The notes under the pieces are model-generated. The model had not been told where the DNA came from and did no database searches. It worked only from the letters and a program-made list of their open reading frames with translations. Shown here one piece after another: positions 2,636 through 14,076 of a DNA stretch of 30,337 nt. The stretch spans positions 1 to 30,337 of the IMG/VR virus record IMGVR_UViG_3300025718_000221; one strand, 5' to 3'. The position numbers and the translations under genes are program-made. Each line of letters opens with the position of its first letter. Within the stretch, counting starts at the first letter, position 1. Source of the DNA: a virus (lineage: Duplodnaviria > Caudoviricetes).

Positions 2636-3823
2636 TTGATGATGCCAGATACTGCAAATATGGATTTAACAGAGTTCAATAAATGGGAATGTAAAGTAAC
2701 GAAAAATGTATATTCATTTGAGGTATTATGTAATTTAATTAAAGATGGTTATGAAAGAAAACATGGTGGAATAGTTTTAAATCCTGATTATCAAAGAGAA
2801 TATAAATTTAACAGACAAAAAGAGTCAAGTATCATAGAATCATTACTGGTTAATATTCCAATACCAATAATTTATCTTTCTCAGGATACTGAGCAAGATA
2901 AAGTATTATTGAATGTTATAGATGGTGCTCATAGATTAAAGGCTATGTATAGATATAAAAACAATAAATACCCATTAACAGAATTATCTAGACTTAAAGG
3001 GCTTAGCAATATGAAATACAGAGAGCTTCCACCGAATGTTAGAAATCGTTTAGATATGAGGAGTCAAGTAAATGTAGAAAGCATTGATGTTTCAGATAAT
3101 GAAGAATTAGAGTATGAAATATTCATTAGGTTTAATCAGGCTACAAATCCATTGACTAAACAAGAACTTAATGAAGTAGTATTTCGTTCTGAATTTTCAC
3201 TTTGGTTAAAAGATATATTAATTGAAAAATTAACTGCTAAAATGATATTTAGAAGTATATTCAAACATAACACTACTAGAGCTAAAGATAAAACTGTAAA
3301 TTACGATTTATATGCATGCCTTGGTTATTCATATGCTGGACTCGTAGATAAAAAAAATGATACCCCTTATTATGTTAGTAGATTTATGTGTGAGATGAAA
3401 AAATTATCAGGAAATGAATTAGAGTTAAAGAAACTAGAAGTTGAAGAATATTTAAATAAGTTCTTAGAATTTTATCATAAAATTACACTGAACGTAGGGA
3501 TAGTAAATATATGTTCTAAAGAATTTGTTACAAAGATAATTCCAAAAAGGAATCACAATTTCTTAATAAGTATGCTTATACCATTAACTTTGTCCTACGA
3601 TTATTTATTGCTTAAAGGTTTCTTTGATAACGGGAAAGGTTTAACAGACATTGATACGATAGAAGCATACGATGCCATTGTAAAGGGAATGAATAAAGCA
3701 GATTTTATAGACTTTGGTGGTGTTTCATCTACTAGTTACCGATTTCAAAAGAAATGTATAGATTGCATTAAAGAATCTATTGATGAAATGATAATAAAAC
3801 GTAAAAATCTAATAATACTATAG
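2636..3823 (+). CDS. DUF262 (ParB/Srx-like NTPase, GmrSD N-terminal type) domain protein, possible defence gene
   Basis: PDYQREY, IESLLVNIPIPIIY, VIDGAHRL (variant of DGQQR) and IFIRFNQ motifs. AGGGGG RBS at 2629-2634 favours ATG 2642. Confidence 0.85.
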   Translation: MMMPDTANMDLTEFNKWECKVTKNVYSFEVLCNLIKDGYERKHGGIVLNPDYQREYKFNRQKESSIIESLLVNIPIPIIYLSQDTEQDKVLLNVIDGAHRLKAMYRYKNNKYPLTELSRLKGLSNMKYRELPPNVRNRLDMRSQVNVESIDVSDNEELEYEIFIRFNQATNPLTKQELNEVVFRSEFSLWLKDILIEKLTAKMIFRSIFKHNTTRAKDKTVNYDLYACLGYSYAGLVDKKNDTPYYVSRFMCEMKKLSGNELELKKLEVEEYLNKFLEFYHKITLNVGIVNICSKEFVTKIIPKRNHNFLISMLIPLTLSYDYLLLKGFFDNGKGLTDIDTIEAYDAIVKGMNKADFIDFGGVSSTSYRFQKKCIDCIKESIDEMIIKRKNLIIL

Positions 3824-4105: not shown

Positions 4106-4135
4106 AAAAAAAGGACACGATCTATTTCGTGTCCT
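4106..4135 (-). terminator. Intrinsic terminator of the RHH gene, overlapping its stop codon
   Basis: aggacacga (4112-4120) / tcgtgtcct (4127-4135) stem; the A run at 4106-4112 gives a U tract on the minus strand. Confidence 0.75.
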
Positions 4136-4286
4136 CATCCTCTAATTCCCCTAAATATCTAGTAATAATTGTGGTTATCAAGTTTGCGGTAGTCCTGCAT
4201 TCTTTATCTGCTTGTTTCTCTAATTTCTCTTTTAATTCGGTTTTGATAGTTAATACGATTCTCGTAGAACCTTTTGCAACTCCCAC
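4122..4286 (-). CDS. Ribbon-helix-helix (CopG/Arc-like) DNA-binding protein, 54 aa, absent from the ORF track
   Basis: My translation: MGVAKGSTRIVLTIKTELKEKLEKQADKECRTTANLITTIITRYLGELEDEDTK. GAGGTG RBS 7 nt before GTG; beta-strand (TRIVLTI) then two helices; has its own promoter and terminator. Confidence 0.85.
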   Translation of the reverse strand: MGVAKGSTRIVLTIKTELKEKLEKQADKECRTTANLITTIITRYLGELEDEDTK

Positions 4287-4377: not shown

Positions 4378-4406
4378 TTGACATGTGATATCACATGATG
4401 TATATT
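4378..4406 (+). promoter_or_regulatory. Strong sigma-A promoter with a palindromic operator in its spacer
   Basis: TTGACA (4378-4383), 17 bp, TATATT (4401-4406). Perfect 16-bp palindrome CATGTGATATCACATG at 4382-4397; 13/15 copy at 4330-4344. Confidence 0.8.
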
Positions 4407-4464: not shown

Positions 4465-4737
4465 ATGAGTAAGATGCAAAAATTATACGGGTACATGTTA
4501 GCTATCGAGGAAGAATTTAGAATCGGTACAGAGGTAGAAATTAAAGAAATGGTTAAAAAAGTAGGTCAACCACTTTGGATTAAAACATTAATTTCTAGTC
4601 AAGAATTAGTAGGGTTTATGGCTGAAGGAATAGAAGTTATTGAAGGTTATTATATTACATCAGACGAAACGTGTGAAGTTTGTGGTGAAGAAGAAGATTG
4701 GGAAGTAGTTAAATTATCAAATTTAGTATTAGTTTAA
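4465..4737 (+). CDS. Acidic hypothetical protein with CxxC, first gene of the signalling operon
   Basis: AAGGGGG RBS; directly downstream of the 4378 promoter. Confidence 0.75.
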   Translation: MSKMQKLYGYMLAIEEEFRIGTEVEIKEMVKKVGQPLWIKTLISSQELVGFMAEGIEVIEGYYITSDETCEVCGEEEDWEVVKLSNLVLV

Positions 4738-4798
4738 TATAATAGGCGTTGCCTAAAGGGTTTAAAGAAAAGATTAATTTTTAAGGGGATAAATAATA

Positions 4799-5731
4799 AT
4801 GGGTATTTGCAGAAATGAAATCTACTGGTGCAATCTTAAAGAATCTTATAAATATTGTCTTACTGGAATTCACCCAGTTATTATTATATCGTCTTTCAAA
4901 CACTTACTTAAAAATGATTTAATACAAGTAATACCAGTAACAAGTAATGTTAAAAAAGTATGTAAAAGTCATATTGAAATTAATCAATGTGGACTTAAAA
5001 AAAATAGTAAAATTGAGTGTGAGCAGATTCTAACTGTAAATCGTATTGATTTAAAAGAAAAAATAGGTAAAATAAGCAATGTTAAAATGTTTGAGGTTAA
5101 TAATATTCTAAAACAACACTTACAATTAGACGGAAAATTTAAGAATTTGGAATCAGTAGACTTGGAGGAGTTGTTTTTCAAGGGGGAAATTAAAATGGGG
5201 AATAAAAGAGAATTAAATATATTAAAAAGTAGGGCAAGATTATCTTATTTAGAAGAAGATTATGAAAAATGCATAGATCATTGCAGTAAACTTATTGATA
5301 AAACAAAATTGAATGAATTTTTATGGTATGGATATTACGCAAAAAGTTTAAGTTATATGAAGTTAAATAAAATAGAATGTGCTTTAAAATGTGCAGAATC
5401 AAGTCTTAAATATATAAATGTAGTGGATGTGTTTAGTCAGGATTTCTGCTTGAGTATGCAGTGTATGGCTAGGTGTTATGCTGACACAAATATAGATAAA
5501 AGTATTGAGGTTTATAAAACTCTAAGTAATATATATAGAGAGGCAACAAATAACAGACTAAGGTTGAGTTGTATTTTTAACATAGCAAGTTTAAAACATA
5601 ATTTATCTGCAATGAAGCGATTAATTAACATAGTGGAAAATACAATTGACACAAAATGGTATTTTTTTGATAACAAAGAGCAATTCTTAGAAAATATGAA
5701 ATTTGAATTATCTACCTTAACAGGTATTTAA
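4799..5731 (+). CDS. PemK/MazF-fold N-terminal domain fused to a TPR domain; putative RRNPP-like peptide receptor
   Basis: aa 1-110 follow the MazF pattern (RNEIYWCNL..GIHPVIIIS..VIPVTS..H..GLKKNSKIECEQILTV..L.EKIGKI). aa 133-310 are TPR-like helical repeats (YEKCIDHCSKLI, YYAKSLSYMKLNKIECALKCAESSL, MARCYA..IDKSIEVYK). Confidence 0.85.
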   Translation: MGICRNEIYWCNLKESYKYCLTGIHPVIIISSFKHLLKNDLIQVIPVTSNVKKVCKSHIEINQCGLKKNSKIECEQILTVNRIDLKEKIGKISNVKMFEVNNILKQHLQLDGKFKNLESVDLEELFFKGEIKMGNKRELNILKSRARLSYLEEDYEKCIDHCSKLIDKTKLNEFLWYGYYAKSLSYMKLNKIECALKCAESSLKYINVVDVFSQDFCLSMQCMARCYADTNIDKSIEVYKTLSNIYREATNNRLRLSCIFNIASLKHNLSAMKRLINIVENTIDTKWYFFDNKEQFLENMKFELSTLTGI

Positions 5732-5762
5732 AATATATATTATAAAAGGAGAAATGATTAAC

Positions 5763-5900
5763 ATGAAAAAAACAAATGTAGTAGTAACAGGAGCAGTCTT
5801 AACAGTATTGGTTGGAGGATTAATAATTGGTAATGTAGCAGATGTAAAGACTGTTGAAAAACCAAAAGTAATTTGCCATATTGACCCTCCGATAGTTTAA
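5763..5900 (+). CDS. Secreted signalling propeptide, 45 aa (Phr/AimP/Qsp-like), absent from the ORF track
   Basis: My translation: MKKTNVVVTGAVLTVLVGGLIIGNVADVKTVEKPKVICHIDPPIV. AAGGAG RBS; basic N-terminus, hydrophobic core, polar linker, Pro-containing tail. Starts 31 nt after the TPR gene. Confidence 0.8.
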   Translation: MKKTNVVVTGAVLTVLVGGLIIGNVADVKTVEKPKVICHIDPPIV

Positions 5901-5931: not shown

Positions 5932-5960
5932 TTGACTCTAACAAATGAATAGTGTAATAT
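5932..5960 (+). promoter_or_regulatory. Sigma-A promoter for the early/replication operon leader
   Basis: TTGACT (5932-5937), 17 bp, TAATAT (5955-5960). Confidence 0.6.
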
Positions 5961-6120
5961 AAGAACGGACGAAAAGTTTACAGGGGATAGCTGACACTAT
6001 TTCCCTATATCCATTTATTAACTTTATCTATATCTTAACCAACTATTTAAAATTTATACCTGCTACAAAAATAAACTATGGAAGGGAAGTGAATCATATA
6101 AGAAATTATCTATTAAATAC

Positions 6121-6242: not shown

Positions 6243-7160
6243 ATGGAATTTATAAAAAGGACTTGTAAAAAAACTAGACAACAATTATTGAATAAAATAT
6301 TAGAGGAAGAAACGGAGAAATTAAGAAAAAAGTGTTTCCCATATAAAAAGAAAAAACTATTACGTGATGAAGTTATTATTAGAGAATCAAATTTTGAAAA
6401 TGATACACAAGCAGGACAATATAATTATACAGATAAAAAACATATAATTTTAGTGGACAAATTAACATTATATAGTGTTCATAAAATGCCTGCAAGTTGG
6501 ATTAGGAAGGATTACTATAAGAAAGTTAAAAATATTGTTAAACACGAACTAATCCATGCTTTAGTAGAACAAGAATTTGAACATATCTGTAAAAATATAA
6601 TAGGTAAAAACAGAGATGCAAGTCCAGTTTTTCTAACAGTACTAAATTGGTGTCAAGGAGTTAGCCATCATAAATGTTTTGAGAAATTTGAACATACAGA
6701 CAATTATATAGAAAGTAATTGTTGTATAAATACATATGAAGATTTGTTCTACTACATAATTGAAATGTTATATAACTATAATAAATCAATAAAAAATTTA
6801 GAATACATAAGCAATGAAAAAGATTATCTTGAACAAAAAGGGAAAATTGGATTAAATATTATATCAAATAAATTTGAATTTGCTAATAGAGAATGTGGAT
6901 TTACTAAAAGTGTAGAAGTTAAAAGAATAAATATGTTTAAAGAGAATAACAAATTTCGTAAAAAACATACAAACATATTAAGAACTTGGGAAATAGGATG
7001 TAATATACTGCCTGAGCAAATAGCTGAACTATATAATAAAAAAGAATCATGTGATGCTAGTAATTATAATTATGCTAAATCTATAGCAGAATTTGAAAAT
7101 GGTGAATTAAAAACTTTAAAAGTATTAAAAGAGAAAAAGAACTTCGGAGATAATTTATAA
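6243..7160 (+). CDS. Zincin-type metalloprotease-like protein (SprT/ImmA-like HExxH)
   Basis: AGQY..HIILVD..IVKHELIHAL; a downstream His pair (VSHH) could supply a third ligand; GGAGGGG RBS. Confidence 0.65.
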   Translation: MEFIKRTCKKTRQQLLNKILEEETEKLRKKCFPYKKKKLLRDEVIIRESNFENDTQAGQYNYTDKKHIILVDKLTLYSVHKMPASWIRKDYYKKVKNIVKHELIHALVEQEFEHICKNIIGKNRDASPVFLTVLNWCQGVSHHKCFEKFEHTDNYIESNCCINTYEDLFYYIIEMLYNYNKSIKNLEYISNEKDYLEQKGKIGLNIISNKFEFANRECGFTKSVEVKRINMFKENNKFRKKHTNILRTWEIGCNILPEQIAELYNKKESCDASNYNYAKSIAEFENGELKTLKVLKEKKNFGDNL

Positions 7161-7456: not shown

Positions 7457-8287
7457 GTGTTAATGATGAAAGGTACAAAAAATAAGATAAAGAAAATGGG
7501 CAAAGGAGAAATTAAGTTAATAAAAGATTTTAAAGATACACAAATTGAAATAGAAGATTATTTTTTAACAGTTGCTTCAGATAAAATTCTTGATTTCGTA
7601 GATAAAAAAGGACAAGAAAAATATAATTTGATGCATGATTTAATTAAAAAACTAAAAGAAATAATGTCAAAAATGATTGATTTTGAGAGTTATGAATTAA
7701 ATATGGAAGAATACGAGAAAACATATTATGAAATAGCTTATTTAAAGGTTGAAGCAGAGGAGTATTTTAACAAAGAAGGAGAATTTGTGCCAGATATGAC
7801 TGATGAGATAATAATACAAACACTACCCAATCTAGGTAAATTACAACAACTTATTACTAAAGGTAAAATTATTGGATATAGTAAAACAGTTAATAATCTA
7901 AGATTTGAAAATAAAAAGTTTGTTGAACGAATCCAATATATAATTAATATGAGTTTCAGAGAAACTGCAAGGGAATATATGAATAATATATATGATTTAA
8001 TAAATAATGTACAAGAAATAACAAATGCAAAAGCTGATATATATGATGAATTGAAAAAACTTAATACTACTGAAGAAATTAAGAAACAAAAAATGAAGAA
8101 GATATTAGATTGTGATGTAATGGATGATTTGTTATTAGAAAGTGGTTATGAACCAATACGTCAAAATGGCTCACATTTAATTTATAGTGATGGTGTTAAT
8201 AGTATTCCAGTACCTCAACATGGGACTTTAAATAAAGGATTAGGCTATGAAATACAAAAACAAATATTAAATAATGAAGAAGAATAA
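7457..8287 (+). CDS. Helical N-terminal region fused to a C-terminal HicA-like mRNA interferase domain
   Basis: C-terminal LLLESGYEPIRQNGSHLIYSDGVNSIPVPQHGTLNKGLGYEIQKQI matches the HicA G(F/Y)..R..GSH..VP.H..L..G...I.KQ pattern. Confidence 0.8.
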   Translation: MLMMKGTKNKIKKMGKGEIKLIKDFKDTQIEIEDYFLTVASDKILDFVDKKGQEKYNLMHDLIKKLKEIMSKMIDFESYELNMEEYEKTYYEIAYLKVEAEEYFNKEGEFVPDMTDEIIIQTLPNLGKLQQLITKGKIIGYSKTVNNLRFENKKFVERIQYIINMSFRETAREYMNNIYDLINNVQEITNAKADIYDELKKLNTTEEIKKQKMKKILDCDVMDDLLLESGYEPIRQNGSHLIYSDGVNSIPVPQHGTLNKGLGYEIQKQILNNEEE

Positions 8288-10788: not shown

Positions 10789-13700
10789 ATGATAGCAAAT
10801 AAACAGGTTCAAATATACAGTGTAGGTGGTAATTACTTTTATAATAAGGAAGAAAATAAAATACATAGTGAAATGCTTAATGAAATGAATATAATAGGTG
10901 CTTTAGAAAGATTCGCTTTATATAGCGCGTTAGAAGAAGCAGAGAAAAAGAAATATACATTTAATTCTTATGAGGATATTAAAAACTTATATGAAATGAG
11001 ATGGAGTAAAGATTTTACTGATGAAGAAGAGAAACTTTTTAATAGTAAAAAATATATAAAGAGATATTTCACTGGTATTGAAAAAAAATATAATGATAGA
11101 TTTGAAGAAATAAAACTAGCTTTAAAGGATAATAATGATATTTACATAAATGCAAATAAACTAAAAGAAGACAAGAAAAAAGAATTAGATTTAGTATTAA
11201 AAGAAAATAATGAGGTTAGAAAATTGAATACAACTAAATTAAGTAAATACGATAAGATAAGTTTATTTGATAGCAATTTAATTAGAGTGATGGAATTAGA
11301 ATTTAATAAGTTGAGCAAAGAGTTATTAATTGTAGAAATAACTCAGCACATTATAATGGATAGTATAATTTCTAAAGGGTTTGATTGGGAAAAAGAAAAT
11401 GGTGAATTAGAACATTACATATTTCTAGTTTCTTCAGCCGGTCAAGTCAGAAAACAAAAATTAGTTATGATTTCTGAAACTAAATATAAAAAAATAGCCG
11501 ATATATTAACTGCTGGATTAACATTAGAGATTATAAATAGTAAAGAAAATGGCGGTTGTAATGTTAATAAATATTTGGCATATTTGAGTTTGAATTCGTC
11601 AAGTTCAGAAGTGTGGGAAAATTTTAATATTGATGAATGCATAGTTTTAAATGATTTTGAATCAGAAGTTATTGGTACAGTAGATTATATTGGAACTAAG
11701 GAAGTAGAGCAGACTTTTGATAAATTAGATACAAAAGGTAATAAATATTTTAATGAAAATGGTAAGATAGTAAAAGAAAAAAGAACAGTAAAAGCTTTAA
11801 CAGAAGTTGAAAGAGTTCCTGATATGAGAGTTCCTATAGAACATTCTGATGGATGTGGTTGGATATTACCTGAGTTATCTGAAGTTAATTTTATGTGTAG
11901 GTTAAATTGGATTAAAGGATTACTAACACCTTGCGATTACATAAAGTGGATTGAGTTATTTAATGAGGGTAATTATAAAGTGACTGATATTGATGATAGA
12001 GAATGGGATTTAAAAGAGGATAATATAAAAGTTATTTTCTTTAAGTCGCAATTCAAGATGCACAAATATTACAAGAATATATTAAATGAAAACGGAGAAA
12101 TAGTTAAATATGGTTGGGACGTATACAAGGATAATTTCAAAGGTAAAAATGGTTGGGATATAACTAGCAGTAAAGTAATAAGAAAAGCTTGTGTAGCTAA
12201 TAAATGTAACGAAGAACCAAAGAATGTTAAAGATTTTAAGCAAGCTAGATTTACATATCAGATGCTTCAGACCTTGGTAAATATGAAAGAGGATGAATTA
12301 AAGGAGTTCACTAATCCAATTAAGGATTTAGTTGGAAAAGCTTATGTAAATAGAAAGACACAATTAAACTTGTTAGGAGCTACTAAGACAAATAAAAAGT
12401 TAACTAATTTTCAAAATGCATTAATGTTATATCCTGCATTGCTTAAAGACGAACATGTAAAAGAAGAATTAAGTACTAAAATAACAGCTTTAAAGAATGA
12501 TGCAAGAGAAGGAAAATTTTCTATTAAGGGTAGTGCATATACATTTATTATTCCAGATGTGTTTGCATGGATGCAAAATATATTTTTAGGACAAGAAAAT
12601 CCTTGTGGATTACTTGAAGATGGTCAAGTTTATTGTAATATATTTAAAGAAGAAAATGAGTTGCTTGTAAATCGGTCGCCCCATTGCTATGCAGAACACG
12701 CTGTAAGAAAGAATTTTACAGGAAGCATAAAGTATCAAGATAAAGAAGTCCTATTATCAGATTGGTTTATAACAAATGGAGTTTATACTTCAAGCCATGA
12801 CCTAATCACAAAATTAATCCAAAATGATAATGATGGCGATAAATCCCTCGTAATAAAAGGAAGTTTAGTAGCTATAGCCGATAGGGAGATGAAAGCTATG
12901 AATGTAGTTCCCCTGTATTATGAAATGGAAAAAGCTGATGCAGAAGTAATTAATGAAGATAGTATCATAAAATCATTAAAGAGTGCTTTTAAATTTGGTA
13001 ATATTGGTACATATTCAAATAAATTAACTAAGATATGGAACAGCGAGGAAAGAGATGTTAAAACTGCAAAAATTCTTTGTGCACTAAATAACTTTTTTAT
13101 TGACGGAGCCAAAACTAATTATTGTCCTGAGGTATTCAGTTCAGTAAAAGAAGAAGTAAAAGAATTTAAGATAGACCAAAGAACAATATTATTACAAAGA
13201 GTTGAGGCATTAAAGGCTGAACAAAAGTTAGAAAAACAAAAGATATTATTCACTATAATCGGTAAGGAAGCTAAAAAAGCTAAACGAACAGAATTAAACG
13301 AGTTATATAAAGAAGGAATAGTAAATTTAAAAATTAAGTTAAATTTTGAAAATACTATAAAAGTTGCTGAAAAGAAAGAGGATATATTAAAAACTGATAT
13401 GTCTTATAAGATTAAAACGTCTGATAAAGATAAATTACCTTACTTTTTTAAATATGCTAAAAATATGAAAACAAGTGAAGTAGAAGAAATGAACGATAGT
13501 ACCGTAAATAAAGCTTGTAAGTTAATAGATGAGATTCCTCAAGGAACATATAATTTTGGAGAAGATAAGTTTAATTCTCATTATTTAGCTAATAATTTTA
13601 AAATTAGTACTACGACAGAAGTAGCAGTGGCTATAATTGAAAAGTATAAAATACTAAACAATCAAATGAAAAGTTATTTTGCACAAGCTAAGGAGGATGA

Positions 13701-14076
13701 TTCTGAAAAGGATGGCGTTAAAATAGCAATTGCAGCGAGAGTTTATGCAACTATAAGGAATGATTTTGAAGTGTTTGTAAAGGAATTAGGAATAGATATA
13801 GTAGATGCTACAGACATAGTTGTAAGAAATATCTATAGGAATAATCCTGGTTGTAAGAAAGCATTTTTGTTTGATGTATTGGGAGATATTATATTAACCA
13901 ATATACAGAAAAACATTAAAGTTAAAACACCAAGGAAAAGTGCTAAGAAAGGGTTCCTATTCTGTAGTGTTTGTGGAAAAGAAGTTAAGAGAGAAAGTAA
14001 TAGACAAAAAATGTGCAAGGAATGTGCTAAAGAACTAATAAAAGCCAAGGATAAGAAAAGAAAATCTAAAAAATAA
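10789..14076 (+). CDS. YonO-like single-subunit two-barrel RNA polymerase (homologue of eukaryotic RNAi RdRPs), probable late-gene DNA-dependent RNAP
   Basis: SSAGQVR, HSDGCGWI, FMCRLNWIKGLL, KSQFKM, VNRSPH, catalytic DNDGD (12826-12840), IDGAKT, LPYFFKY; C-terminal CxxC-x13-CxxC Zn finger. Confidence 0.88.
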   Translation: MIANKQVQIYSVGGNYFYNKEENKIHSEMLNEMNIIGALERFALYSALEEAEKKKYTFNSYEDIKNLYEMRWSKDFTDEEEKLFNSKKYIKRYFTGIEKKYNDRFEEIKLALKDNNDIYINANKLKEDKKKELDLVLKENNEVRKLNTTKLSKYDKISLFDSNLIRVMELEFNKLSKELLIVEITQHIIMDSIISKGFDWEKENGELEHYIFLVSSAGQVRKQKLVMISETKYKKIADILTAGLTLEIINSKENGGCNVNKYLAYLSLNSSSSEVWENFNIDECIVLNDFESEVIGTVDYIGTKEVEQTFDKLDTKGNKYFNENGKIVKEKRTVKALTEVERVPDMRVPIEHSDGCGWILPELSEVNFMCRLNWIKGLLTPCDYIKWIELFNEGNYKVTDIDDREWDLKEDNIKVIFFKSQFKMHKYYKNILNENGEIVKYGWDVYKDNFKGKNGWDITSSKVIRKACVANKCNEEPKNVKDFKQARFTYQMLQTLVNMKEDELKEFTNPIKDLVGKAYVNRKTQLNLLGATKTNKKLTNFQNALMLYPALLKDEHVKEELSTKITALKNDAREGKFSIKGSAYTFIIPDVFAWMQNIFLGQENPCGLLEDGQVYCNIFKEENELLVNRSPHCYAEHAVRKNFTGSIKYQDKEVLLSDWFITNGVYTSSHDLITKLIQNDNDGDKSLVIKGSLVAIADREMKAMNVVPLYYEMEKADAEVINEDSIIKSLKSAFKFGNIGTYSNKLTKIWNSEERDVKTAKILCALNNFFIDGAKTNYCPEVFSSVKEEVKEFKIDQRTILLQRVEALKAEQKLEKQKILFTIIGKEAKKAKRTELNELYKEGIVNLKIKLNFENTIKVAEKKEDILKTDMSYKIKTSDKDKLPYFFKYAKNMKTSEVEEMNDSTVNKACKLIDEIPQGTYNFGEDKFNSHYLANNFKISTTTEVAVAIIEKYKILNNQMKSYFAQAKEDDSEKDGVKIAIAARVYATIRNDFEVFVKELGIDIVDATDIVVRNIYRNNPGCKKAFLFDVLGDIILTNIQKNIKVKTPRKSAKKGFLFCSVCGKEVKRESNRQKMCKECAKELIKAKDKKRKSKK

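Follow-up and report, generated by a model that had tools for sequence, protein, structure and literature searches.

The DNA analysed here, referred to as the window, is a 30,337-nucleotide (nt) stretch of the viral record IMGVR_UViG_3300025718_000221. It is low in GC (24–35%) and represents a fragment of a likely clostridial phage, in which genes for the tape measure, tail, capsid, and terminase were recognised. On its plus strand, two adjacent genes locate between positions 4799 and 5900. The first (4799..5731) encodes a long product of 310 amino acids (aa), in which a MazF/PemK fold (aa 5–108) is fused to a tetratricopeptide repeat (TPR) domain (aa 133–310). The second (5763..5900) encodes a 45-aa propeptide with a Lys-rich N-terminus, a hydrophobic stretch, and the C-terminal sequence IDPPIV (5880–5897), the predicted signal core. 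Inside the first gene, the ribosome site AAGGGGG (5180–5186) and an in-frame ATG at 5195 (Met133), together spanning 5180..5197 on the same strand, mark the predicted start of a TPR-only product of 178 aa (5195–5731, plus strand). On the basis of the predicted domain anatomy and fold searches, the linkage of the genes, the peptide motif and its repeats, the phage context, and the internal ribosome-site signal, we describe a module of receptor and propeptide in which a MazF fold takes the output position; this description is well supported. The module is real and conserved; it combines two known kinds of system and is apparently undescribed.

A reading made from the DNA letters before our searches (the sequence-only reading) had proposed a 310-aa protein with a MazF-fold N-terminus and a TPR C-terminus, and Pfam, AlphaFold2, and fold searches bear this out. 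Pfam PemK_toxin matches aa 5–107 with an E value of 5e-16. The full-length AlphaFold2 model, built on a 30-sequence alignment, has a mean predicted local distance difference test (pLDDT) score of 89 and matches S. aureus MazF in Foldseek (E 1.8e-8). Superimposing the model on solved MazF structures gave a Z score of 19.2 and a root-mean-square deviation (rmsd) of 1.4 Å over 111 aligned residues, the rmsd ranging over 1.4–1.9 Å.

The C-terminal domain (aa 133–310), when folded separately, forms nine helices with a pLDDT of 94.6. The structure search with this domain matched only TPR proteins, among them Pins (VIA-align Z 17.6, rmsd 3.4, 162 residues aligned); Foldseek agrees, and the ESM Atlas places the domain in TPR clusters (0.96). 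Pfam called no TPR in the window protein, where TPR_BSK1_C (E 0.008) stays below its cut-off; two homologues pass a Pfam TPR cut-off. Among 30 fusions, N261, R255, and Y180 are each conserved in 28 and W176 in 25. RRNPP receptors typically hold the peptide backbone with a conserved Asn in their groove.

The five-TPR core of RRNPPA receptors is close in size to the TPR domain of the fusion (PMC12700828). In the searches with this domain, RapH scored E 1.2e-4 but LGN scored 2.3e-6, AimR gave Z 14.8 (rmsd 5.5, 154 aligned) below the 17.6 of Pins, and the Rap of phi3T appeared among generic TPRs in Foldseek (E 5e-3). RapH and AimR thus rank below eukaryotic TPRs. No PlcR, PrgX, Rgg, or NprR chain stands among the 50 best matches of the TPR fold searches, which does not exclude these receptors. 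RRNPP descent of the modeled TPR domain is unproven; no specific tie in sequence or structure appears beyond a generic TPR likeness. Among 11 hits of 97–364 aa, no form of this TPR fused to a helix-turn-helix (HTH) domain was present, and a weak search for longer fusions returned only generic TPR proteins.

The small open reading frame (ORF) ending at 5900 has two candidate starts. ATG 5763, 31 nt past the receptor stop, has a ribosome-site energy of -9.3 kcal/mol, against -3.4 kcal/mol for ATG 5754; these energies were computed against an anti-Shine-Dalgarno motif. A signal-peptide-like ORF of 45 aa had been placed 31 nt downstream from the sequence alone, and these coordinates hold, ATG 5763 having the better ribosome site. 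To look for counterparts, we defined a propeptide filter: an ORF of 25–75 aa with a ribosome-binding site, a basic N-terminus, and a hydrophobic stretch, at most 80 nt downstream. Its limits were chosen knowing the window's peptide, and export was judged from charge and hydrophobicity. It passes 11 of 11 fusion loci (the window and ten others), with ORFs of 41–70 aa, so that the expected small secreted-type ORF does follow the homologues by this measure. In the controls, none of 38 other genes of at least 150 aa from the same loci passes, and a set of 433 genes taken from 38 other phage loci yields 2 passes. The 11 loci represent about three or four lineages, and the count overstates their independence.

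The propeptides are alike only in the Lys/hydrophobic leader and a short Pro motif, which reads IDPPIV, IDPPGI, VDPPMP, TDSPIV, TDGPIV, GGGPIP, or GGGVVP across loci. IDPPIV occurs in the window and in L001, encoded by different codons and next to receptors about 30% identical. TDSPIV occurs in L004 and L009, TDGPIV in L005, and GGGPIP in L010; one genome, G001, carries three paralogues with three different peptides (VDPPMP, TDSPIV, TDGPIV). The L008 propeptide contains three repeats (IDPPMV, MDPPMV, IDPPM) and that of L021 contains two (VIAPMC, VIAPMV), again in different codons. Multi-copy propeptides are a described RRNPPA feature (PMC9765709), and judged by its sequence the repeated Pro-rich unit is the pattern of peptide pheromones. 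As to the proposed C-terminal signal peptide, the conserved and repeated Pro-rich tail unit suggests that its core is about IDPPIV and not specifically HIDPPIV.

It is highly improbable that the small ORF is instead a membrane-bound micro-protein, either a type I-like toxin or a direct antitoxin, with the TPR domain binding something else. Such a product would fit the fact that export and cleavage are judged from charge and hydrophobicity only. It would also fit two loci in which PemK and TPR are split: no leader-peptide ORF lies downstream in L028, and the form in L015 is a leaderless 22-aa ORF with IDPPGG. Conservation is nevertheless confined to the leader and the short Pro motif, and the motif is repeated within single propeptides, which speaks against such a product.

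Covariation between receptor and peptide tails had also been proposed as a check. Lys/Arg at positions 143 and 182 is present in 8 of 8 fusions with Asp-containing peptides and missing in two with Gly-rich peptides, but it is also present in L021, whose peptide has no Asp. With one contrast, this counter-example, and too few lineages, we dropped covariation as support for the module, and the point counts against our reading.

A word-indexed search found six close relatives of the fusion at 55–64% identity, two of which, from Clostridium estertheticum and Clostridium sp. CF012, bear the name PemK/MazF toxin in their sources. HMMER added about 25 further full-length fusions, down to about 28% identity, together with TPR-only proteins of 180–210 aa and many PemKs with a helical extension. 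Ten further fusion loci were available as DNA (L001, L002, L004, L005, L008, L009, L010, L011, L020, and L021), and roughly 20 fusions are known as protein sequence only. The counts leave out L019, which has the same sequence as the window; L023, whose contig ends after 84 codons; L018, a long unrelated repeat protein; L006 and L007, which are PemKs without TPR; and the duplicates L003, L012–L014, L016, L017, L022, L024, L025, and L077.

All genome-derived loci come from the family of Clostridium sp. CF012, the organism of genome G001. In genome samples of the G001 family, at least 5 of 393 scored genomes matched the fusion query and at least 9 of 386 the TPR profile; the figures are at least 4 of 30 in the G001 genus and at least 1 of 401, G001 itself, in the phylum sample. 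These counts are floors, as few candidates per genome were scored in large searches. The fusion family is rare. The annotated phage collection contains no full-length relative (five records match the PemK part only), and neither does the annotated plasmid collection. In scans of viral contigs, two queries and a degenerate TPR pattern gave no match, and two other queries hit the same single contig. No PADLOC or NCBIfam family matched the receptor or the peptides. Database labels call the fusion proteins ordinary PemK/MazF toxins, so a survey by name would miss the family.

Among the 157 internal in-frame ATGs of 15 window genes, none has a ribosome site as strong as that at Met133 (-10.3 kcal/mol), which also beats the receptor's own start (-7.3 kcal/mol). 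In 8 of 11 fusion loci, the equivalent site at the domain boundary, at -8.4 to -12.6 kcal/mol, likewise outdoes every other internal site of its gene. Energies of -8.4 or lower, found in these eight loci, occur in 1.9% of 1459 background internal starts; energies of -10.3 or lower, found in six, occur in 0.14%. The Gly codon at the boundary site in nine loci is always GGA or GGG and precedes a G-starting codon for E, A, V, or D, a pattern that suggests selection on the bases. Stand-alone TPR proteins such as P0009 start at the residue equivalent to Met133.

Several observations count against a selected second start. The site is absent in L010 and L011, and the start codon position reads TTA in L008. 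A Met lies within two residues of the Met133 column in only 11 of 30 fusion proteins. When the same residues are recoded synonymously, the mean energies already come to -6.8 to -9.2 kcal/mol; the real site beats the recoded mean in eight of nine loci, but individually it falls below 0.05 in only two of nine. The strength of the site may thus be mostly explained by the amino-acid sequence, and the site may be a relic of the fusion. On balance, we consider it somewhat more probable that the internal start yields a selected, real TPR-only protein than that it is such a relic. Such a second protein would resemble the intragenic antitoxins of Rpn.

The internal start bears on another explanation, in which the peptide and the TPR domain signal through a different partner (for example, the downstream SprT-like protease or a repressor) and the MazF domain is merely a fused neighbor that is not gated. 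The TPR-only protein would then be the real receptor, and its supply would be secured by the internal start; the internal site is often stronger than the gene's own. Stand-alone TPR genes of the fusion family with DPP-like peptides and no PemK in front point the same way: L026 has a leader peptide with IEPPLP just beyond the distance filter, and L027, which follows an HNH gene, has one ending in ILPPH. So do the split PemK and TPR loci, L015 and L028. However, about 30 proteins, some of them only 27% identical, retain the fusion, a second architecture (P0054 and P0099) joins an extended PemK to the same TPR, and the SprT-like gene stands next to the module in only three compared loci. We regard this explanation as quite improbable.

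In L027 (genome G144), the HNH endonuclease stands before the TPR gene in place of PemK and may be a second nuclease partner. The TPR protein of this locus has no match in the annotated phage collection.

The module lies in phage DNA related to SPbeta. A gene for a YonO-type phage RNA polymerase with the DxDGD motif (10789..14076, plus strand) marks the window as an SPbeta-like phage; its product is 35% identical to SPbeta YonO over 90% of the length (E about 1e-116). Seven of the 11 fusion loci, as well as the split locus L015, have a YonO-family gene downstream, at a distance of 0.5–4.9 kb in the fusion loci, and three of the module-linked genes contain DxDGD. An integrase is located upstream in four of six fusion loci fetched widely, and a small divergent regulator gene is common, so the surroundings of the module resemble a prophage control region. 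As exceptions, L005 has an integrase upstream and tail genes downstream, and L020 and L021 are short contigs without a YonO match.

Two results weigh against a tie to phage control. In L002, the module lies in a 2.2-kb island without phage genes. Around other YonO genes, neither PemK nor a fusion-type TPR was found in any of 38 loci, whose flanks reach up to 10 kb and several of which are short or near-duplicate. Because none of these 38 loci carries the module nearby, it is accessory rather than core, and we rejected its use as a marker of all YonO phages.

We notice further features of these loci. The L002 island (L002:4179-6500, Clostridium sp. CF012) lies among host genes and holds the receptor, the peptide, and two tiny ORFs; its flanks are 94-nt direct repeats, 98% identical, copying the 3' end of a host gene, and it looks like a prophage remnant. 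Exact DxDGD is kept in the window, L001, and L033. Four YonO-family proteins (phrog_8308) of 965–1013 aa do not have it (L029:1477-4515, L031:13351-16245, L034:13876-16803, and L035:3532-6516) and would be variant or inactive polymerases. In two loci, prophage integrases directly follow spo0A (L034:4753-6740) and spoIVA (L032:1450-4252), placing these elements beside sporulation genes.

An extended PemK also occurs just before YopQ/YopR-like genes in L078 (phage c-st, 22935-27129) and in L038:8911-13001. We rejected phage c-st as an instance of the same module: its PemK with an extension stands two genes ahead of the YopQ/YopR homologues, and no TPR of the fusion family is present in the 6.2 kb covered there. 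In L038, a TPR gene lies between PemK and the YopQ/YopR-like genes, without a peptide gene. In SPbeta, such YopQ/YopR genes follow the arbitrium locus. The extended PemKs found in phages (phrog_1936) may constitute a broader class of proteins that regulate lysogeny.

The MazF-fold domain is a candidate ribonuclease (RNase). Aligned to S. aureus MazF, the position of the catalytic Arg is occupied by His25 in the window protein, and Thr48 is kept. Across 35 fusions, the columns hold His25 in 32, Thr/Ser48 in 35, and His58 in 27, and the equivalents of Thr48, His58, and Glu75 of MazF are mostly retained. His25, Thr/Ser48, Ser/Thr49, and His58 are strongly conserved among proteins at about 30% identity. 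The active-site positions are thus conserved rather than drifting, and the conservation of His argues for a retained role. His can serve as an acid or base in other RNases. His stands at the Arg position in 13 of 53 phage-type PemKs with a C-terminal extension and in 5 of 50 short MazFs among the hits; M. tuberculosis MazF4 has a Lys in place of the catalytic Arg (PMC7354611). On the other hand, catalysis is made less probable by three points. Arg is retained in 45 of 50 stand-alone MazF hits, against His in 32 of 35 fusions; the loop preceding His25 is about five residues shorter in many members; and Arg25 of Bacillus MazF is the predicted general acid/base, whose mutation severely cuts activity (PMC7354611). 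Because the catalytic Arg is replaced by His, the protein may or may not act as an RNase. The sequence-only reading had proposed a TPR receptor and propeptide with the toxin fold as output, the peptide switching RNase or MazE/F-binding activity: the anatomy and the linkage stand, and the word ‘ribonuclease’ names a possibility.

The same changes allow an alternative in which the MazF fold is a protein-binding decoy. The His-substituted domain would either pair with host MazF, poisoning the dimer and so being AimX-like in effect, or capture host MazE; the peptide would switch the decoy off, and host MazF would decide lysogeny. The Arg-to-His change and the shortened loop agree with a decoy, as does a canonical host mazF (L006) in G001, the genome with three fusions. 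The MazF fold is used as a protein binder in CalpT, which we count for this alternative. SPbeta-like phages, moreover, act on host MazF via AimX (10.1101/2023.04.27.537455). What makes a decoy unlikely, although it deserves serious attention, is that His25, Thr/Ser48, Ser/Thr49, and His58 are conserved at about 30% identity beyond what a dead site needs, and that His is also found in the extended and short PemKs counted above.

No cognate MazE/PemI gene lies upstream of the receptor: the 90-aa ORF in that place has no family match, and the upstream genes vary between loci. The all-against-all comparison of the loci likewise revealed no conserved upstream gene as a possible antitoxin. Control must therefore come from elsewhere. 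Summed over the readings considered here, peptide control of the MazF-fold output in some form is very probable.

As our preferred reading, we tentatively propose, at slightly below an even chance, an RRNPP-like module with a MazF-fold output in an SPbeta-like phage, in which the peptide switches on the activity and favors lysogeny. The propeptide would be exported and cut to a short Pro-rich peptide with the predicted core IDPPIV. Once taken up again by cells, this peptide would bind to the TPR domain and thereby gate the MazF-fold domain joined to it. When the peptide is absent, the MazF domain would be held off by the TPR part, helped by the TPR-only protein from Met133 acting as a brake or buffer. 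As infections accumulate, the bound peptide would release a weak or narrow RNA-directed activity, which would damp lytic transcripts, for example those of the downstream polymerase operon, so that lysogeny is favored.

The steps of this proposal differ in strength. The predicted export, processing, and binding of the peptide are highly likely, and gating of the MazF domain is, overall, probable. The choice of RNA rather than protein as the target, and the polarity, are the least certain. We chose the polarity, in which the peptide switches activity on, because of the analogy with phi3T. AimR and Rap receptors are active when free of peptide, which speaks against this choice and favors the opposite polarity. 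In phi3T, high peptide leaves host MazF active, and the RNase activity of MazF is needed for lysogeny (10.1101/2023.04.27.537455). A fuller version, a three-product switch from two genes comprising a MazF-type ribonuclease with its own sensor, a TPR-only regulator, and a secreted peptide as the density-dependent on/off signal, is possible but doubtful.

With the opposite polarity, the protein would be a toxin with a diffusible antitoxin: the RNase would be active without peptide and silenced by the re-imported peptide and the TPR-only product. Its role could be addiction, abortive defence, low-density dormancy, or cutting repressor mRNA to start lysis. This would account for the missing cognate MazE gene and for the retention of the module alone in the L002 island between its repeats, and defence-type genes (GmrSD, Mrr, and AIPR) lie near the module in some loci. 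Antitoxins encoded as a gene within a gene are established for Rpn (10.1101/2023.05.02.539157). The position between the integrase or divergent repressor and the polymerase gene, however, fits a lifestyle switch; with an antitoxin that has to be exported and re-imported, a cell that has just been infected would lack protection, save for any that the internal product affords; and the protein lacks a PADLOC family match. We therefore consider a diffusible antitoxin unlikely.

The RRNPP(A) systems (PlcR-PapR, Rap-Phr, NprR-NprX, AimR-AimP, and the clostridial Qsr-Qsp and QssR-QssP) likewise consist of a cytoplasmic TPR protein of 250–500 aa and an adjacent propeptide gene. Their propeptides, as in the module, begin with a basic/hydrophobic leader and carry a short motif that is C-terminal or repeated. 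The active heptapeptide of QspB, AEPTWGW, contains an acidic residue followed by Pro, like the peptides of the module (PMC7376267). Their described N-terminal output, in contrast, is an HTH or a three-helix bundle (PMC9765709; PMC12700828), where the module has a MazF fold. The module also differs in having about four TPRs with a capping helix and a likely internal TPR-only product. Because the output domain is of another kind and the TPR homology lacks a specific tie, we do not file the module as an RRNPP member.

Arbitrium (AimR-AimP-AimX) of SPbeta-like phages belongs to the same broad kind of phage, with YonO, and there a peptide signal and MazF also meet in the lysis-lysogeny decision (10.1101/2023.04.27.537455). 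The arbitrium receptor AimR is a DNA-binding protein that controls transcription of an antitoxin against host MazF, whereas the module has a phage-encoded MazF fold, not an HTH, at the N-terminus of the receptor itself. No AimR- or AimX-like family was found among 29 scanned proteins of the window, which is part of a phage.

MazEF and PemIK share the MazF fold with the module but differ in their upstream MazE/PemI and their catalytic Arg. Because it has neither, and carries 200 extra residues of linker and TPR besides, the module is not a standard MazEF system. In Rpn, an N-terminal nuclease-fold domain is joined to a C-terminal helical domain that is translated separately from an internal start and blocks the full-length nuclease (10.1101/2023.05.02.539157); the corresponding product of the module is predicted. 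Unlike the module, Rpn is a DNase of the PD-(D/E)XK kind; its C-terminal product is very small, and it lacks a peptide signal. The extracellular death factor (EDF) is not known to involve an adjacent dedicated propeptide gene and, unlike the module, acts on ordinary MazF without a TPR sensor. This secreted peptide is reported to enhance the RNase activity of MazF (PMC5930309, PMC7616896).

The claim that no system of this architecture had been described agrees with our search: a MazF-TPR protein with a peptide was not found in the literature searched, which was mostly without subscription papers and included a survey of 384 viral systems without its supplements (10.1101/2021.07.15.452460). The passages covered of the RRNPP_detector paper describe no such protein, and ‘PemK’, ‘MazF’, and ‘PF02452’ are absent from the text of the RRNPP_detector supplement as available, which may list accessions only or be incomplete. 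Three features go beyond the sequence-only reading: a likely internal start, the split forms, and the link to YonO-bearing SPbeta-like prophages.

The characterised lysis-lysogeny peptide systems come from Bacillus phages, and the phage peptide systems described in the literature covered act through DNA-binding or phosphatase receptors. In the module, from clostridial SPbeta-like prophages, a toxin fold takes the place of such an output. This suggests that the connection of peptide signal, MazF, and lysogeny known from phi3T can be reached by an independent and more direct route. If the three-product version is true, the whole arbitrium-AimX-MazEF cascade of Bacillus phages would be compressed into one protein, and a toxin-antitoxin system would be gated directly by a communication peptide. 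The natural variants IDPPIV, TDSPIV, TDGPIV, IDPPMV, and GGGPIP would allow the study of specificity and cross-talk. The module is small, with one 310-aa protein and one internal start, and a peptide-switchable RNase would be useful as a tool.

Upstream of the receptor, a divergent gene (4122..4286, minus strand) encodes a 54-aa ribbon-helix-helix protein of Arc/CopG type (Pfam RHH_5, E 1.5e-9; Arc-like repressor in PHROG), a likely repressor. Several homologous loci also have small divergent genes of HTH type on their upstream side. A promoter-like site, TTGACA-17-TATATT (4378..4406, plus strand), overlaps the palindrome TGTGATATCACA (4384-4395) and is the likely promoter of the 90-aa ORF, receptor, and peptide genes. 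It matches 11 of 12 consensus bases, although such sites are not enriched in the window (23, against 17.4 +/- 5.0 in shuffles). The 90-aa ORF itself (4465..4737, plus strand) encodes an acidic protein of unassigned function, without a Pfam or PHROG family or a MazE-like match. Among the compared loci it has one homologue, in L009/L032, and it is not conserved before most homologues of the receptor; in L004, L008, L015, and L020, a conserved 60–66-aa ORF of unknown family stands in for it, immediately before the PemK gene.

About 45 nt before the receptor start, the palindrome TAGGC-GTT-GCCTA (4743..4755, no strand assigned) is a candidate operator or small hairpin. Its core GGCGTTGCC is common to the window, L020, L008, and L002, and a related TAGC-NNN-GCTA occurs in L001, L004, L005, and L009. 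In these eight loci, the palindrome has the form TAG(G)C-NNN-G(C)CTA; one clade has GTT as the loop, and the second has AAC, AAT, GAT, or TTT.

Beyond the peptide gene, a promoter-like TTGACT-17-TAATAT (5932–5960; 9 of 12 match) and a hairpin (5983–6005) precede the next gene (5932..6005, plus strand), and a similar promoter with a hairpin follows the peptide gene in L009. The first gene past the module (6243..7160, plus strand) encodes a 305-aa SprT-like protein with HExxH (ESM Atlas SprT-like clusters, 0.96). Homologues lie just past the module in L032:11074-12021 and L035:7597-8520, which with the window makes up the three loci mentioned above. The SprT-like protein could be an anti-repressor protease or a peptide-processing enzyme. 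In the same operon, a 276-aa protein (7457–8287) has a long helical N-terminus and ends in a HicA-like domain (Pfam E 1.7e-5, narrowly missing the cut-off); it would be another toxin-fold fusion. Farther upstream of the module, the window carries a Mob_Pre relaxase-like gene (1–807) and a GmrSD_N/NsnA-like defence gene (2636–3823).

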